Assembly (NCBI GenBank): GCA_000004695.1 | Contig: CM000153.2 | Span: 800,001-864,000, forward strand | DNA: 64,000 nucleotides | Origin: Dictyostelium discoideum | Taxonomy: Eukaryota | Direction: 5' to 3' | Shown here: positions 3,656 through 33,346 of the stretch, one piece after another | Position numbering within the stretch: the first letter of the stretch is position 1 | Layout: each line of letters opens with the position of its first letter | Made by a program: the position numbers and the translations under genes | Notes under the pieces: generated by a model | What the model saw: the letters and a program-made list of their open reading frames with translations, nothing else | Databases searched by the model: none | What the model was told of the DNA's origin: nothing

Positions 3656-3790
3656 TGAGCCATAATTCATTTTTAAACAAAATAAATTTAAAATTAATAA
3701 TTATCTCAGATAAAAAAATATGTTAATGGGTATTATCAAAGACCCATAGATGTAAGGTAGATTGATAATTTCCAACTCTATTTTTTTATT
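3515..3790. repeat. Direct repeat copy 1 (~270 bp, includes a ~70-nt poly(A)) flanking the patatin-gene 3' fragment
   Basis: 3515-3790 (tttaaactcatttaatac...poly(A)...cataattcatttttaaacaaaataaatttaaaattaataattatctcag...cccatagat...tttccaactctattt) is recognisably repeated at 4940-5190. Confidence 0.6.
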
Positions 3791-4024
3791 TTTTTTATTT
3801 CTATTTTTATTTTAATTATATTATTTTAATTTTTTATTATTATTTTTATTTTTATGTTTTATATCTTTAATTTTAATTCTATTATTATTATTATTTTTAT
3901 TATAATGGTGGTTATTGTTTGAATAAATATAAAAAATGATATAATTTAGTTTGAAAATAAATTAAATTTGATTTAACTTTTATATAAACATTATTATGAT
4001 TATTATTATTTGATTTTTAATCCT

Positions 4025-4690
4025 GTAAGAATTAAAACCATTCTTTATTGAAAAGGGAGTGCCAGAAATTGAAGTTTAATTTTTAATTTCATTTAATGGT
4101 ACTAAAGTACATAAGATATCCACAGTATCTGGTGGACTATTAATTACGAATGGAATTGAGAAATCTTGATTTGAAAGTAAAGGTGAAGGAGTTGAATAAT
4201 TGAGTTGTTTTTCAACATTTGAGTGATTAGTATTAAAAATATATCCTGGTGATGATGGAGAATTTTTAAATTGATTAATAATTTCAATTGGAATTTTATC
4301 TAGTCTACATTTTATTTTGCCAGTTAATTGTTGTAGATTGATTTAAGACCAAATCATTAATGTAAAATAATGATGATAAACATTTCTTTATGATTGAATG
4401 TATAATTGGATCATTTTTAGTTTTTTCAGATTGTTGTTTTAAAATATTCATTGTAATATCATCTACTGCATCTAAACCAATTGAATTTTGGAAACTTGGA
4501 TTATTTCTAAATGAATTTCTACCTTCTTTAATTAAATCATAAATTTCATGAACTTCTCTCCAAGAATTCTCACATTCTGTTAAAAGTTTAATAATATTTT
4601 CACCAACTTTAAAAATATTATTTAAATCGGCTTCTGGTGATGGGAAATTACCAGTACCAAGTGAACCAGGTCACATATAAAAGTCTAAAA
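4025..4690 (-). pseudogene. 3'-terminal fragment (~660 bp) of the GTPase-patatin paralog family. It contains stop codons and has no upstream exons
   Basis: Near-identical at nucleotide level to 10021-10680 (the 3' end of copy B). Homology ends abruptly at ~4690. There is an in-frame TAA (gaagtttaa) and small indels. No ORF is reported here. Confidence 0.7.
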
Positions 4691-8096: not shown

Positions 8097-9490
8097 CATT
8101 ACTATTATTTGAAGTGAAATTTCTAAAAATTTTATTTGTTGATTTTGGTTCTTGAAAATTTGAAAAATCATCAATAATTCCAGTACAATTTAATTTAACT
8201 AAATCGGGTGAACCTATTGGATTTTTACTAAAGAAATTAGTTAAATTTGAAATTCTTTTCATACATTTTGATTTTTCAACAGAAATTTTTGGAGTTCTAT
8301 TATTTTTAAATTTTAAAGATTCTAAAACCTTTTCACTAATAGTTTCTTCCAATTTTTTAAATTGACTTTGATATCTATTAAAAGAATCTAATTCCTTTCC
8401 ATTAATATTTGGTAAGAAAATGATTGAAACTGATTGAAAACGTGTTTCTATCTCTTTTGAACCATGAAAATAATCCTTAAAATATTCTTTCTTGGCATAT
8501 TTCATATCATCATATTCTTTATTTTTATTAGAATTATTAAATAAAATGATTAAATGTGGACTACATGGATTATTTGCACTATCAGCTGCAACCGAAGAAA
8601 ATTCAAGTAAACTATCAATAACATCACCTCTATTTCTGGCATCACCATAAAATGTTAAAACAAAAACATCTGAACATAAATATAATAATCTTGGATAAGA
8701 TGATTGGACATATTTACTTCTAATATCAGCCTTCTAAATAATTAAATAAATAAAATAAAAAATAATAAAAAGAATTAGGAAAAAATCCATTATGAAATTA
8801 AAAATTTTTAATTTTTTAAAATCAAAATACAAACTATTAATAATGATTCATTTTTCTCATCTTTTTCTTTTTTTTCATTTCTTTCTTTTAAATCATTGGT
8901 TTTTTGAGAAAATGTTCCATTGATTCCTTCAGAATCAATAATTACATATTTAAACTTTTCTTCACCAACAGTTTCACCAATAAATGAATTTAAATCTGAA
9001 GAGGTTGATGTAATTGAATCACCACCAGGAATTGGATGATCGCAAGTTTTTGTCAAGTTACAAATTGTGGTTGATTTACCTGAGCCACTAGAACCAATAA
9101 AACTATCGACTAAAAATGGATCTTTATCTGATAATCCAATTTGACCCCATTTGTATCCATGATCAATTGTCTTTGTTTTAGTATTAACAAACAAAAGTTT
9201 ATTTTTTAAATCCATTGATCTATCATATTTTACAATATCATTGTAGCCTTGTGTGAATTTTTGATATTTAAGAAAAAAAGTAACCCTTTTAAATTCTTCA
9301 TAAGGAATTGTTTGGTGTTCTGATTCATCCTGATGTCTAGTTGCACATGATTTACAAATAATTCTATCTCCATTACATTGAAGACAAAAATGAAAATCAT
9401 CACTATTTGTTGATTCTTTTTGACATTTTTTAAAGTCACAAATTATTTTGGTAGGGTATTTATAAATTTCATCTTTTACAAATACCTTTT

Positions 9491-9494
<4 letters not shown>
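5455..9494 (-). CDS. Copy A (apparently intact, ~1312 aa) of a giant multidomain protein: N-terminal Cys/His zinc finger + P-loop GTPase (GBP/atlastin-like motifs), poly-Asn linker, RING-like Cys cluster and patatin-like phospholipase domain
   Basis: Exon 1 is about 8835-9494: MEKVFVKDEIYKYP..., zinc finger C-x4-C-x10-H-x-C-x2-C-x7-C-x2-C-x3-H-x5-H, GSSGSGKST, DSEG. Exon 2 is 5455-8733, starting right after ttag: KADIRSKYVQSSYPRLLYLCSDVFVLTF...; CFGCCLNSPYIEYKCGHFLCLDCS...CRVPGC; LSLDGGGVRG; GTSAGG; DGGLKNNNP. The intron is ~100 nt and AT-rich. The donor in copy A is non-canonical (GTTTGT), so its position is approximate. Confidence 0.7.
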
Positions 9495-9552
<58 letters not shown>

Positions 9553-10009
9553 TAGGGTATTTTATTTAAAAAAAAAAAGTTTATTTTATTTTAAGTTTAC
9601 AATTTTACAAAATTGTTGAGTAAATAATATTACAATTTTAAATAATAATATAATAATAATGTTATAAAAAAAAATAAAAAAAAAAAAATAAAAAAAAAAA
9701 AAAAAATAAAAAAATAATAAAAAAAAAAAAAAAATAAAAATGAAAATAAAAATAAAATTAATTTCACACTATTGCACTTAAATAATTACAAAGATGGTGG
9801 TAATAAAAATAACATCACCCATATTTTTATTATTTTTGTAATTTTTAATATTCATTCAAATAAAGACCACCATTTTTTTTTTTTTATTTTAATTTTTTTT
9901 TTTTTTTTAATTCTATTTTTATTTTTATTATTATTTTGATTATTTAATTTTTTAATTCTATTTTTATTTTTATTTTTATTTTTATTATTATTATTTTTAT
10001 TATTTTTTT

Positions 10010-24797: not shown

Positions 24798-26280
24798 TTA
24801 ATATGGAGTTATTCCATTTGGTAAACAAACTGGAATTCCAGTTGTATCAGCAACACATTTAGTTCCTGGTGAACATTTTACAAATTCACATAATGGGGCA
24901 CAACGTGATTGTTCTAATAAACAAATTTCATTTAATTTACAAGTGATAATTGGGCCACATGGAATTGATAATCCATCACCCTCATTTTCATTATCATCAT
25001 ATCCATTAGGATCATTATCATAATCATCATTAGAATTTGATGGTAAACGACACGATGGAATTTGAATACAGCAGTCACGAGAACCTCTTGGACATTTATT
25101 AGGAACCATTGCGCAATCCAATGAACCACAATTAACATCATGACAAGTTTTACAATGACCTGGATGGGTTTCTCTTACGCATGATGGGAGATCATTGATG
25201 ATTTCGCAAGAGTATCCAGATGGGCAATGTAAATCTCTACATGGGTAGTTTGGTGGTAATGGATTACGAATACATGTTGGAAGATTATTAATTGCCTTGC
25301 AAACATAGCCATATGGACAAGTTACATTACGACATAATGAGCCTGGATTTGGTCTTTGGCAATGTGGACGATGGTGAGAGTCGACCACGCAATCATATCC
25401 TGGTGGACAATGGTGATGCTCGCATTCCTTTTCTTCACATTCTACACAATTGGCGGTTCCACCAAATTCGACACAATTGAATCCTTTTGGACATTGAACG
25501 GCATCACAAAGCACTGGTGGAGGTGGTGGTGGCTTTGGTTTTGGTACACAGCATGCTTTACCATCTTTTACAATACATTCTTTTCCTCTACCACATTTAA
25601 TAGCTTTACAGAGATGATGTGGTTTTGGTGGTGGTGGTCTTGGCTTTTCAACACAGTAAGCTCCACCATGAATATCTTGACAACAATAATCCTCTGGACA
25701 AATTACATTCTTACATGGTGAGACTGGTCCACCACCGCCACCACCACCCTTACAAACTGGATAACGTGGACAACATGATGTACCCATACATGGTACTGGG
25801 TCAACCCATTCACAAACTCCTCCACTTGCTTCACATAGCTTTTGATCACAAGTTTCATTTCTAACTTGATAATCATATAAAAATGGTGAATTTGGTCTAC
25901 ATGAACTCCAAATCTCATAAATTGCATCGGTTTTTGAATCTTTCATACAACTTAATGGAGCATTTCCACAACCATTTCCATTATCTTCTACACAAAAGAA
26001 TTTCTTTGTACCACAACATGAAACAAAAGGTAAATACTTACAACCAGAATTTGGTGCTTTACATTGGTCCTCTGACAAACTATCACAATCTTTTTTTAGA
26101 AATAAAAAAAAAAAAAAAAAAAAGATTAGTTCCTATAATTATAAATTAAAAATAAAAATAAAATTTAAACTTACTTCTAGGAGGAGGTTTCCACCATTTA
26201 TCATGTTCCGGATTTGCATTACTAATTGATAATGTTGAGAAAACTAAAACCAAACATACTAATAAATTATTTATCCTCAT
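24798..26280 (-). CDS. Secreted Cys/Pro-rich extracellular protein, 2 exons, ~460 aa. It has follistatin/EGF-like CxxGYxC repeats, polyPro and polyGly runs, and resembles dictyostelid spore-coat/ECM proteins
   Basis: Exon 1 is 26174-26280: MRINNLLVCLVLVFSTLSISNA signal peptide, donor GTAAGT. Exon 2 is 24798-26079, starting after gatag: SEDQCKAPNSGCKYLPFVSCCG.... Many repeats are of the type CPxGYxC....LPxC, with PPPPKP and GGGGGGG. Confidence 0.65.
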
Positions 26281-27564: not shown

Positions 27565-29532
27565 ATGTCAGACCAAGAGTATTATAAAGATGTGAGTTTT
27601 ATTATTTATTATTTATTTATTTTTTTTTTTATTTTTGTTTTAAAAAACTAAAATTTTTTTATTTTTTCTTATTTTTTATTTTTTATTTTTTATTTTTTTA
27701 AATATATATAGTTTAGTAATAAAATTATTAAAGAAAGAAAAAAGAATATTGAAAATGATGAATCAAAAGTGATTTATTTTACATTAGCAGGTAGTCATTC
27801 ATTTAATTTAAATGTTGAAAGTAGTGATAAGGATTATTTTGGTGTTTATTGTTCAGATATTGATGATATATTAGTTGGTGATATTAAACAACCAATTATT
27901 GATAGTCATGAACCAGATGATTATATTTTATTTGAAGTTGAAAGATTTTGTGAACTTTTATATAAAGGTAATCCAAAATTGATAGAACCAATGTTTACCA
28001 CAAGATTTTGTTACAAATCACCAATTTGGGAACAACTTTTCTTAAATAGAAAAGAATTAATTAGTCAATCTGCAATTCAACATTATTTAAGTTATAGTAA
28101 ATCTCAAATGGGTGATGCATCAAAATTAATCTTTAAAAACGGCTCACCAATTTCAATTGAATGTGGTGGGTCAGAACAAGAGGAAGAAGATAAAAAGAAA
28201 TTACTATTATCAATGATTAATAGTAATCATAGTTATTGTAAAAAGTTATATCATACCTATAGATTGCTATTGGACACTAAAAGAATGTTGGAATTGGGTG
28301 AACCAATGGTATATTTACAAGGTGAAGAAAGGGAGAAAATTATGAAAATTCGTATGGGTGAAGAGGATTTAACTGCAACTTTAGCAGAGATTCAACAATT
28401 ATTCAATCAATGTTATACAAGATTTCAAGAGGTTAAAGAAAAGAAATTAATTCAAGAGAATTTAAATATTAAAGTTTTAAATGACTGGTTAATTAAAGTT
28501 AGAAAACAATCTTATCTCCAAAAGGAGGCATCGTCACTTGGTATAACAAGTGGAAAATATACAGATGCTGATTTTGAAATCAGCGATATTAAATCATATA
28601 ATCTTTTGAAAGTTTATAACCATTTTCAATCACTATTAACAAAACATAAATTGGAGGGTGCTAGAATTTTAATGATAAAAAGATCAGGTTCAGTATCTCA
28701 TAATCTTAAACATGAGAATGAGGAATCCTTCGACGAAGAAAATGGCGTTGAGAAAAAGGAGGATTGGATCGGTGTATATGTAGCACCAACTGAGTCAATA
28801 TTTTCATTATATCCACCACCAAGACGTATAGATTCCACAACAGTGCTTTGCACAAGTTCAAAAATTGAAGAACCCGAGGACAACACAAATCAAAGGGACA
28901 CTTATTTAAGTGGTATTCAATTATTTGAATTGGGTTATTTCATTCAATTGTTATCATCTGGTAATCATCGTGTTGTTGAATGTTTTTATGATAAGAATTC
29001 CGCTAGTGATTTGGTTGAAACTAAAATTTGGAAAGATATTAAAAACCTGGAAGTAAATTCAAACTTTTTATCAATCAATTTAATTCATCATTGTTGGGGT
29101 GTTTCTAAAGGGTTGGTTGAAAAACTTCAAAGATCTCCTTCATTCTCACCTTCAACTCCATTATCTCCAAATACTTCAAATGTAATTCCACTCTCTGAAA
29201 AACGTAAATCGCTTTATCATGCTCAAAGATTAATCAATAGAGCAGAGGAGATTTTAGATAAAAAAAATTTCACTGTCTATCTTGATGAAGATGATGATTC
29301 AACTGAAAGAAATCTACTCTTAAGAATTAAAAACTCTTCAGATTTCAATTCTGATCAATTAGTATCTCTCACAACAAGTTGTCTCAATCAAATTAAATCT
29401 GTAAATGATAAAATTCAAAAACTTTCAAATATTTCTTCTGCTGATAAAAAATTAAATGAATTATCAATTAAACAATCTTTAAAAACAATTTTAATTAAAA
29501 TTAGAAAATCAATGATTAAAATCATTGTATAA
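27565..29532 (+). CDS. Nucleotidyltransferase-fold (Pol-beta superfamily minimal NTase motif) protein of unknown function, 2 exons, ~615 aa
   Basis: Exon 1 is 27565-27591 (MSDQEYYKD, donor GTGAGT). Exon 2 is 27712-29532 (FSNKIIKERKKNIENDESKVIYFTLAGSHSFNLNVESSDKDYFGVY...). It shows the hG[GS]-x10-DhD pattern of Pol-beta-like nucleotidyltransferases. The rest has no recognisable domain. Confidence 0.5.
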
Positions 29533-31128: not shown

Positions 31129-31439
31129 TTTCGTTGATATAAAAAATAGTTTATTGATATTTAAAAAAAAAATTGGTCAAAAATTAAAAAAATAATTATT
31201 TAATAAAAATATAAAAAATGAAAAACAATTAAAAGTTTAAAAAAAAACAGTATAAATAAGTTAAAAAAAAAAAAAAAAAAAAAAATATATTATTAATAAC
31301 TATATCGTTGGCAATTGACCCTTTTTTTTTATTTTTTTTTAATAATTTTTATACTGTTATAAAAATTAACTGTATCCTATTTCTATGGGTTTAAAAAAAT
31401 TTATTCCAAAATACTCTTATAGAGCATTATAATTAAATT

Positions 31440-33120
31440 ATTAGATTTGGTGAAAGATTAAATAATATAGTCTTTAGTTCAAAAATACACCAGATTCTTT
31501 AATATTTGCTGAAATAATTTCAAATTGCGCCAATACTCTTGATGAATTTGTTTTTCCTGTTGTGTGTAGTAATTTAAATTCAATTGCAAAAGAAAATATG
31601 AAAAGCCCATCTTTTGAAGTTTACAAATCTTTATTTATGGAAAATGATTCAACAACTAAATTTGTAAATCAATTCTTTTTAACTTACCCACAAATTGGAC
31701 ATTCAATGAGAAGCTTTTTAGATAATAATATCAATAATATTGAAAATTGTTTATCTAGATTACAATCAGATTGGGATAGTATTAAAAAGTGGTTTGCTAC
31801 CCAATTGTAACCCACTTTCTATCCAGAGGATATCAAGCTAACCAGGAGAAACAATTGTTAATGTTGGATGTACATCATTTTATTCAACTTATTTAGTTTC
31901 AAATTCCAATCTCAAATTTGAAAATGAATCAATTCAAAATTATACAGATATAATTTATTCCTATGGGTGTATTGATACACTAATTTCTTCACCACCAACA
32001 GATGCGGAAGTGGAAAAAATAGAAGATTGTATTCAAAAGGGTGTTTGCACCGATGTAGATGCTGATCCATCCTCGTTTATAGAATGTGCAATATCTATTA
32101 GTATTGAAATTTTATCAACAATTGAATAAACATTACAAGGAAGTGGATTAATTACACATGGTAGTTTTTATTTGGGTTTATCTGGTGTTTTAGTTTTTCT
32201 TTCTGGAATTTAGGCACATTCCAATTCTATTTCAATGTTTAAACTTTGTGATAGAATAGTGAATTCTATATTAGTTAATAGGCCAAAGTTTACACCGTGT
32301 GGTGGTGCATTTGATGGATTATCATCTGATATTTATGCAATTTGTTTCTCAGGTATAATAACAAAAAACCATTAATGGATAAATAAAGAAATTTCATTAG
32401 TTTCAAATGAAATTTCAAAGGATTTAATTTTACAAAGTAAAGTTTTGGATATTGTAGGTGGGGTCACAGGTTGTCTATTAACAATATATGTTGTAAGATA
32501 TAAAGTACCTCAAGAGCTAATTAACCTAGAAACTGCAGACCTTTTAGATTCATTAATAGATTTATCTGTAACAAAATTATTAAATTCTATAGAACTAGTA
32601 AAGGAAATGAATACAGGCATATCACATGGTATTTATCACTTTCTTTACCTTATTTCAGAGCTGATTTGAAAAGTTCAGTACAATCATTTATTGAAAAAAT
32701 AGTTATTTTGGAAGATGAACATTTTTGTTCTAAAACTCAAGAATGGAAAGATACAAGGGAAATTAATTGTAACTCAATAGTAATTGTGTATTCATGGTGT
32801 TATGAAAGTCCTGGTATTTAAATTTCAAGAAAATTAATTGGTGATTCTTATAAATATCCAGTTGGATATGATAAAAATAAAATTTATGAAATGGAGCCAA
32901 CAGATCTATCCTTTTGTTGTGATCTTTCAGGTAAAATAGATGTTTTATCTTTATTATTAAATGAAAATAGTGAAATAACATTTAAATATGCTCAATCATT
33001 AGTAAGAAAACTTTAGATAAAAAACAAATAATATTTGAAAATAACAGATATAGTTTTTTTAAAGGTATATCGGGAATTGGTTATGTTTTATTAAGATTAA
33101 GTAATTTAAAAAATATCCAT
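31440..33120 (+). pseudogene. Degenerate LanC-like (lanthionine synthetase C-like) domain gene with multiple in-frame stops and frameshifts
   Basis: LanC motif relics sit in shifting frames: GLSGVLVFLSGI, GISHGIYHFLYL (GxAHG), SWCYESPGI (the WCHGxPG position with His lost), LSFCCDLSGKIDVL (the CHGxAG position with His lost), and C-terminal FFKGISGIGYVLLRL. Stops interrupt the conserved blocks. G+C is higher than in the flanking intergenic DNA. Confidence 0.5.
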
Positions 33121-33346
33121 TACCTCTTTTCTTTTTTTCATAATTTATTGATTTTTAAAAATAAAATAAAAAAAAAAAAAAATTAAAATATTAATTATAC
33201 GTGGTCAGGTTTTGTTTCTAAATTTTTAGATACTAAAATACAAATTGTTTTCTATTAAAATATCTGAACTTTCATAATATTTCATTGGATTTAATGTGTT
33301 AAAAAAAAAAAAAAGAAATTAATTTTTTTTTTTTTTGAATGTTTTA

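Follow-up and report, generated by a model that had tools for sequence, protein, structure and literature searches.

A decayed LanM-type lanthipeptide synthetase gene and a candidate precursor gene on chromosome 4 of Dictyostelium discoideum

A stretch of 64,000 nucleotides (64 kb) from chromosome 4 of Dictyostelium discoideum (GenBank assembly GCA_000004695.1, contig CM000153.2, positions 800,001 to 864,000 of the forward strand; here called the window, whose own numbering is used throughout) contains, at 31499-33184 on the plus strand, the remains of a gene with a LanC-like domain, broken into four collinear pieces in three reading frames. The relic is almost certainly a LanM-type pseudogene, what is left of a class II lanthipeptide synthetase gene that joined a DUF4135 dehydratase to a LanC cyclase; for the whole explanation, that of a unitary LanM pseudogene within a decaying two-gene cassette of lanthipeptide type, of which the neighbouring small gene DDB_G0283559 is the candidate second member, the probability is put at roughly 0.85. 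LanM-type synthetases are treated as bacterial enzymes, and eukaryotes are thought to possess only stand-alone LANCL proteins, which act on glutathione; full-text searches of a library of papers turned up no account of a eukaryotic LanM/DUF4135 gene.

Layout and family assignment of the relic

A subfamily profile made from five intact relatives is matched by four pieces of the relic, each of them significant alone and all on the plus strand: an N-terminal fragment of LanM type (31499-31810, frame 2, profile positions 53-159, E=4.9e-19), the first half of the cyclase (32001-32573, frame 0, positions 529-723, E=2.4e-24), its second half (32678-33043, frame 2, positions 775-895, E=4.8e-19) and its C-terminal end (32995-33117, frame 1, positions 881-921, E=2.1e-8). 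The stitched conceptual translation matches Pfam LANC_like over positions 5-342 of 350 (E=4.6e-28). An earlier note on this DNA, made from the letters, had reported LanC-like blocks in order along the strand, and these matches bear it out; the "at least four reading frames" it counted cannot hold, as one strand has only three, and the four segments lie in three frames. It had also placed the relic at 31440-33120; the boundaries are instead at about 31499 and 33184.

The N-terminal fragment (31499-31810, +) comprises the region of the capping helices together with ~40 residues from the start of DUF4135; TAA 31808 closes it, and it overlaps the annotated "hypothetical protein" of 70 amino acids DDB_G0283561 (31598-31810). 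Pfam DUF4135 itself is matched weakly, over positions 1-38 in the fragment (E=0.02) and over 1-43 when the full stitched translation is used (E=0.02-0.08). It is followed by the collapsed remnant of the dehydratase core (31811-32000, +), 190 base pairs (bp) standing for ~370 profile positions, across which the frame passes from 2 to 0. The first cyclase half (32001-32669, +), in frame 0, carries the blocks GLSGVLVFL, DIVGGVTGCLL and GISHG and is interrupted by TAA 32127, TAG 32211 and TAA 32373. The second half (32678-33016, +), in frame 2, shows LEDEHF, SWCYESPGI, ISRK and FCCDLSG; TAA 32819 stands directly after SWCYESPGI, the annotated 41-residue "hypothetical protein" DDB_G0283563 (32891-33016) lies within it, and it ends at TAG 33014. 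The C-terminal end of the cyclase (32995-33186, +) reads, in frame 1, RYSFFKGISGIGYVLLRL and continues to TAA 33184-33186, which is likely the original stop of the gene. Together with TGA 32667, which was created by a frameshift, there are seven in-frame stops and three changes of frame; the interrupted motifs noticed earlier, GI(stop)AHS and ISELI(stop), are TAG 32211 and TGA 32667, respectively.

The best NCBIfam model for the stitched translation is LanM (TIGR03897, E=1.9e-39), at a score of 135 bits that is below the curated family cut-off of 304. In a search of the PDB at E<=1 the sole structure matched was the LanM enzyme LicM2 (E=1.2e-11), with the N-terminal fragment of the relic aligned to LicM2 residues 90-185; chains of LANCL1/2 or NisC were not matched at that threshold, nor was any Pkinase or lyase domain found in the conceptual translation at E<=1. 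Word-indexed protein searching proved too insensitive, returning nothing with the stitched relic and missing even known members with the subfamily profile; an exhaustive HMMER search of 1.84 billion protein representatives was made, in which the full-length proteins among the matches listed have ~900-1100 amino acids and align via their C-terminal part; P0002 (E=6.5e-42) and P0004 (E=3e-26) clearly outscore the others listed. The architecture DUF4135 plus LANC_like is present in seven out of seven relatives checked (P0002, P0004, P0010, P0013, P0025, P0154 and P0167), and the N-terminal fragment alone finds, by phmmer, P0002 first (2e-11) and then P0004, the same nearest relatives as the cyclase part. 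Because the N-terminal fragment and the cyclase part both match LanM proteins best, the relic is assigned to this family and not to LANCL or LanL. A kinase exon had been suggested as the upstream partner; no Pkinase domain is found there, and what does lie there is the start of DUF4135, a domain which has a lipid-kinase fold (PMC4550811), so that the suggestion was right only as to the fold.

In intact genes, profile positions 160-528 take up about 1.1 kb; in the window 190 bp stand for them, so that ~0.9 kb has been deleted. The catalytic residues of CylM, namely D252, H254, K274, D347, H349, N352, D364, R506 and T512, all map into this gap when P0002 is aligned with CylM (PMC4550811), and their equivalents are invariant across the intact subfamily. 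One marginal scrap of the dehydratase core can be found in 31811-32000 (SFYSTYLVSN against STYLIQN, p=0.04); as it is the only match, a single deletion and several deletions cannot be told apart. The relic is unable to make the enzyme, since the dehydratase catalytic residues are deleted and the remainder is interrupted; the gene is non-functional, as the earlier note held, and the N-terminal remnant speaks for LanM ancestry, not for present membership of the enzyme family.

Upstream of the detectable relic, the 5' end of the synthetase gene may survive in degenerate form from ATG 31385 to 31498 (+); this stretch reads MGLKKFIPKYSYRAL, then a stop and Leu, with five stops altogether, and the sequence YRAL(stop)L resembles, by eye, the subfamily motif FRDxxRALLF. 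Extension to ATG 31385 brought no match to the subfamily profile, and a start at this ATG is possible. Beyond it lies a divergent AT-rich intergenic region (31129-31384) with a G+C content (GC) of 0.12. The window as a whole has ~20-30% GC and poly-A/T spacers, features which together with exact protein matches assign it to chromosome 4 of D. discoideum AX4. The neighbours of the relic are genes for an RlaP-family nucleotidyltransferase, an AIF-1-like EF-hand protein, a WD-repeat protein, a spore-coat protein and CSN1. The nucleotidyltransferase belongs to a family best known from bacteria; it is encoded by an open reading frame (ORF) of 587 amino acids (27769-29532, +; PF10127, "RNA repair pathway DNA polymerase beta family", E=2.6e-20), and the candidate precursor gene is only ~1.4 kb away.

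Relatives, the candidate precursor gene and the origin of the cassette

Close relatives of the relic are very rare. P0002 (911 amino acids, 31% identity to the relic) is found on one contig, from Logan run SRR22388312, and the P0004 cluster (991 amino acids, 28% identity; metagenomic, annotated as "lantibiotic modifying enzyme") on four metagenomic or run-assembled contigs, with SRR9302960 and JGI 3300059473 among the sources; both are intact. P0010 comes from JGI 3300056850. In a neighbour-joining tree restricted to the columns that the relic retains, and including 36 named bacterial LanMs, the relic joins P0002 with 85% bootstrap support and both are grouped with P0004, P0010, P0013 and P0025, apart from the 36 bacterial proteins. 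P0167 was set aside, its locus being an ordinary bacterial one. P0013 (KAL0206581.1) comes from Eukaryota sp. TZLM1-RC, described as the metamonad Skoliomonas litria (PMC11603281). It is situated on a contig of 1.38 Mb among RING+B-box and DUF4200 genes of similar GC, and is an intact homologue in the nuclear genome of that organism.

Head-to-head with the relic, and 370 bp from its first detectable codon, stands DDB_G0283559 (30931-31128, -), an intact ORF of 65 codons transcribed divergently from it. Its product would have a short acidic/hydrophobic leader of the LELE type, followed by a core with seven Cys and many Ser/Thr; class II precursors are expected to be built in this way. The seven Cys fall within 25 residues, which is unique among the 113 small ORFs of the window, and the GC of the ORF is 0.33 versus 0.12-0.15 in intergenic DNA. 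On the Skoliomonas contig (L006) an ORF of 79 amino acids, MISVPFSDLELELSRILLRR...RPCTQTGGVCASGHVSCGHCPSSKKGCKR, with a ...DLELELS... leader and a Cys-rich core, is placed head-to-head 54 bp upstream of P0013, and on the contig of P0002 (L004) a divergent Cys-rich ORF of 74 amino acids, ...GPQTGAYTYCTRCKQTPCSGCATCHT, lies 33 bp upstream of the synthetase; at three loci (the window, L004 and L006), then, the synthetase gene has a small Cys-rich ORF in divergent orientation before it, at a distance of 33-370 bp. The Dictyostelium and Skoliomonas peptides align with a Smith-Waterman score of 36 (shuffle p=0.012), and the motif L[ED]LE has only two occurrences in the whole window (64 kb) and a single one in 22.8 kb of L006, with one in each case heading the small ORF.

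Judged from these sequences, the chances that DDB_G0283559 was once the substrate of the relic synthetase are about even. Nearly as probable is that the LanM pseudogene is what it seems and the 65-codon ORF has nothing to do with it, being a chance ORF or an independent Cys-rich peptide that resembles the Skoliomonas and L004 ORFs by coincidence. Several points weigh against the pairing. The peptide link draws on three loci, and as the motif was taken from two of these (the window and L006), the L[ED]LE count is circular and post hoc; of the three peptide pairs only that of Dictyostelium and Skoliomonas is significant, the L004 peptide giving p=0.34 against that of Dictyostelium. In the short flanks of three other subfamily loci (L005, L007 and L169), and likewise in those of genes of the P0004, P0010 and P0025 types, no convincing small ORF of this kind was found. 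The codon usage of the 65-codon ORF is uninformative, and at the stop density of the relic (~1 stop per 65 codons) an ORF of this length stays open by chance in ~37% of cases. Cys-rich proteins are common in Dictyostelium, and a spore-coat gene is only 5 kb away; a word-indexed search of the protein database with DDB_G0283559 found only itself, and there was no Pfam match. Coincidence, on the other hand, has to account for the same orientation, distance class and size at three loci, one of them bona fide eukaryotic, for a Cys density reached by one in 113 small ORFs of the window, for an exon-like GC, and for the order of leader and Cys/Ser/Thr core expected of class II precursors (PMC4550811).

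Three further observations concern small ORFs of this kind or their surroundings. The spore-coat gene just mentioned (24798-26078, -) encodes a Cys-rich protein of 426 amino acids whose N-terminal domain is that of Dictyostelium spore-coat proteins (PF04562, E=7.7e-30). On L004, at 440-600 of the minus strand, there is a second leader-like element, IPFSMLAHLELEEVL, close to the Skoliomonas leader SVPFSDLELELSRIL; it runs into a stop, and ~95 nucleotides further on, in another frame, a Cys-rich stretch follows, TRYTRCCRPCTSQVRKKQC. A GT...AG intron would bring the two together in frame; in that case, which is speculative, the host would be a eukaryote and a second precursor would exist. The contig of P0004 (JGI 3300059473) has, just downstream of the synthetase gene, tandem genes of 43 amino acids (3779-3910 and 3982-4113), a pattern expected of precursor peptides.

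If DDB_G0283559 was indeed the partner, the relic gene would once have been one half of a two-gene cassette, whose synthetase would have bound the leader of the DDB_G0283559 peptide, turned Ser/Thr of the core into dehydro-residues by phosphorylation and elimination, to which the Cys thiols of the core would have been added at the zinc site, forming thioether rings. DDB_G0283559 may have outlived its enzyme, perhaps kept for another role. The cassette would stem from a rare LanM subfamily, one that includes the intact nuclear gene of Skoliomonas litria, and most likely reached the Dictyostelium lineage horizontally, ultimately from bacteria.

Horizontal acquisition is indeed the probable explanation, rather than ancient eukaryotic inheritance, and a bacterial ancestry of the transferred gene is the most economical reading; the gene may have arrived straight from a bacterium or by way of another eukaryote. 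Bacterial and archaeal genomes and metagenomes yielded only generic LanMs with 24-30% identity to the subfamily, and viral contigs, of giant viruses or other viral origin, three generic matches at 22-25% identity and nothing closer. The best named bacterial match is a LanM from a Parachlamydiales metagenome-assembled genome (L089 3001-5607; 27% identity, E=7e-69 to the subfamily profile); the tree does not place it with the relic. The order Parachlamydiales includes symbionts of amoebae. Some considerations tell against too firm a view of the transfer: the deep nodes of the tree are weak (52% for adding P0004; the wider group was not tested as such), the transfer may have gone in either direction, and a eukaryotic subfamily, which would need eukaryotic hosts for P0002, P0004, P0010 and P0025, is no more than a possibility. 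A coding-density test of L004, L005 and L007 for a eukaryotic host did not discriminate at these GC levels. On L007, the contig of P0010, a (TTG)x65 microsatellite and runs of 75-80 T and A nucleotides occur at 8901-9572, ~0.5-1 kb upstream of the gene, and the contig also has a reverse-transcriptase ORF and a weak ZZ-finger match; these are eukaryote-like hints only.

It is very improbable that the relic is bacterial DNA inserted recently, with food bacteria or a symbiont as its source, or that it is a contaminant of the assembly. LanM enzymes are overwhelmingly bacterial, and among named bacteria the subfamily is matched best by the Parachlamydiales protein; the locus, however, is flanked by ordinary Dictyostelium genes (AIF-1-like, WD-repeat) and is present in two independent assemblies and several sequencing runs, the GC and codon usage of the relic are fully Dictyostelium-like, no bacterial LanM exceeds about 27-30% identity to the subfamily, and none of the bacterial or metagenomic LanM loci fetched is among the top 35 matches of the relic. 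The notion of a once-larger family, which the earlier note had drawn from the decaying copy, finds no footing either: no paralogue of the relic was found in the window, and none of its nearest relatives is a dictyostelid protein. This pattern is more in keeping with the acquisition of one gene cassette than with a shrinking family.

A LanM-type gene, plausibly with its substrate gene, has thus been resident in Dictyostelium long enough to take on the composition of its host before it decayed. The wider interest lies beyond the relic, in an amoebozoan LanM-type gene with a plausible cognate peptide gene and an intact metamonad counterpart. That some eukaryotes carry working class II lanthipeptide cassettes, intact in Skoliomonas litria and present in the Dictyostelium lineage until recently, is a tentative and rather doubtful proposition; if it is true, eukaryotes would have their first gene-encoded lanthipeptide pathway. 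Should the Skoliomonas pair be active, ribosomal thioether peptides would join the known eukaryotic natural products, and bacteria-grazing protists would be seen as borrowing bacterial peptide weaponry.

Decay of the gene and its age

The relic still has the composition of a coding region: its GC is 0.26, compared with 0.28-0.31 in exons and 0.12-0.15 in intergenic DNA, and the log-odds of codon usage in its inferred frames are 0.23-0.28 bits per codon, versus 0.25 in a real exon, and are negative in the other frames. One of its lesions is polymorphic. After 32629, a deletion of 13 bp has removed IAGV from SHGIAGV and shifted the frame, leading to TGA 32667. Contigs from three sequencing runs (L001-L003; SRR26869268, SRR26869247 and SRR28564543) are 99.2% identical to the window and have 13 extra bases (around 1307-1320 of L001), which restore SHGIAGV and the reading frame there; all other stops are common to them and the window, and one further difference of L001 is a T to G substitution at window position 32380. 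The 13 bases are missing, as in the window, from L175, which is an independent D. discoideum assembly. As the deletion is present in L175 and the window and absent from L001-L003, it is real and varies between strains. The gene was dead before the 13-bp lesion arose, and lesions are still accumulating. The exon-like GC and codon usage, together with the polymorphic lesion, indicate a decay that is recent in evolutionary terms, that is, the death of the gene is fairly recent.

It is hardly credible that the gene is alive by way of unrecognised introns, programmed frameshifting or read-through of stop codons. Gene predictors do offer spliced models, P0151 with 154 amino acids and one of 209 amino acids in the newer assembly (L175 4001-4532, 4638-5419), and the codon usage of the relic is still exon-like. 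The 66-nucleotide "intron" of P0151, however, removes SIKKWFATQL, which aligns as coding to the intact homologues, and is, by eye, far richer in GC than the genuine introns of Dictyostelium; TAA, TAG and TGA stops alike stand inside conserved blocks, the dehydratase core is absent, and the Gly of WCxG and of CCG are substituted. Splicing had been thought an unlikely rescue on account of stops inside conserved motifs, and this holds: the blocks concerned align as coding to intact homologues, and the core is physically missing. The spliced models of 154 and 209 amino acids are annotation artefacts, and DDB_G0283561 and DDB_G0283563 are pseudogene fragments, not protein-coding genes. A literature search on these two identifiers and on DDB_G0283559 found no paper.

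The zinc site and comparison with known synthetases

In the alignment with intact relatives, W790, C791, R801, C831 and C832 are conserved and kept in the relic, which retains all three zinc Cys (in SWC and FCC), the active-site histidine of GISHG, the acid of ED, and SR. The glycines beside the ligands have been replaced, WCYG having become WCYE and CCG having become CCD. His ligands had been regarded as lost, on the grounds of WCYES and CCDLSG, which was a misassignment. The zinc ligands of CylM are Cys875, Cys911 and His912 (PMC4550811). The residue that follows the first Cys does not bind the zinc; LANCL proteins have His there, bacterial LanC enzymes mostly Tyr, and LanMs His, Lys or Asn (PMC9934072). 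Some known clades have a triad of Cys-Cys-Cys (PMC11251773). The combination of WC-Y and C-C is the state of the nearest intact relative, P0002, and a trait of the subfamily. Among 271 LanM-type sequences CCG is found in 139 and CHG in 127, and CCG in all of the closest relatives; from its sequence, the relic cyclase would be of the Cys-Cys-Cys ("CCG") kind.

The idea that the relic descends from a eukaryotic LANCL/GCR2-type gene or from a kinase-LanC fusion (LanL-like, class III/IV) of a once-larger Dictyostelium family, as the earlier note had it, is contradicted by the evidence and highly improbable: the LanC-like domain is genuine and LANCL proteins are normal in eukaryotes (PMC9934072, PMC11251773), but LANCL is reported to have His after the first Cys and a CCH triad (PMC9934072, PMC11251773) where the relic has Tyr and CC, and the structure and family matches, the LanM N-terminus upstream (E=5e-19), the missing Pkinase and lyase domains, the architecture of the top relatives and the window without a paralogue all speak for LanM.

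With LANCL1/2/3 and the plant GCR2 the relic shares the LanC alpha,alpha-toroid fold family and zinc-thiolate chemistry (PMC9934072); it differs from them in that they are stand-alone proteins of ~400 amino acids without a dehydratase, which act on glutathione and not on a gene-encoded precursor. The class III/IV enzymes (LanKC/LanL) consist of lyase, Ser/Thr kinase and LanC-like domains, whereas the upstream part of the relic is a LanM N-terminus. The LanMs themselves (LicM2, 6ST5; CylM, 5DZT; ProcM, of the "CCG" or three-Cys type) have the same order of domains, DUF4135 and then the LanC-like cyclase, and of their features the relic has kept the N-terminal helices, the start of DUF4135, the GxxG repeats, the SHG acid, ED, SWC, SR, the CC pair and the C-terminal GxSGIGY. 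Unlike them it is dead, its dehydratase core deleted and its frame broken by stops and frameshifts, and it lies in a eukaryotic chromosome and has eukaryotic composition; bacterial LanMs are mostly of ~1050-1090 amino acids, while members of the subfamily to which the relic belongs have ~910-990 and a shorter N-terminus. Class II clusters have a small ORF for leader and core adjoining the synthetase, and a candidate for such an ORF stands beside the relic; in contrast to these clusters, the relic neighbours examined include no LanT-type transporter/protease and no immunity gene. P0002 and P0004 differ from the relic in being intact, with all the catalytic residues equivalent to those of CylM, and in their GC of 46-50%, and have in common with it the motifs LDDxVxPVV, YxxLFxE and CLxRLxxDW as well as the WC-Y/W and CCG states. 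P0013 of Skoliomonas litria, intact, with WC-H in place of WC-Y, is at ~23% identity and by score no closer to the relic than many bacterial LanMs are; it is like the relic in belonging to the same group of the tree and in being a DUF4135 plus LanC gene, here in full, on a eukaryotic nuclear contig.

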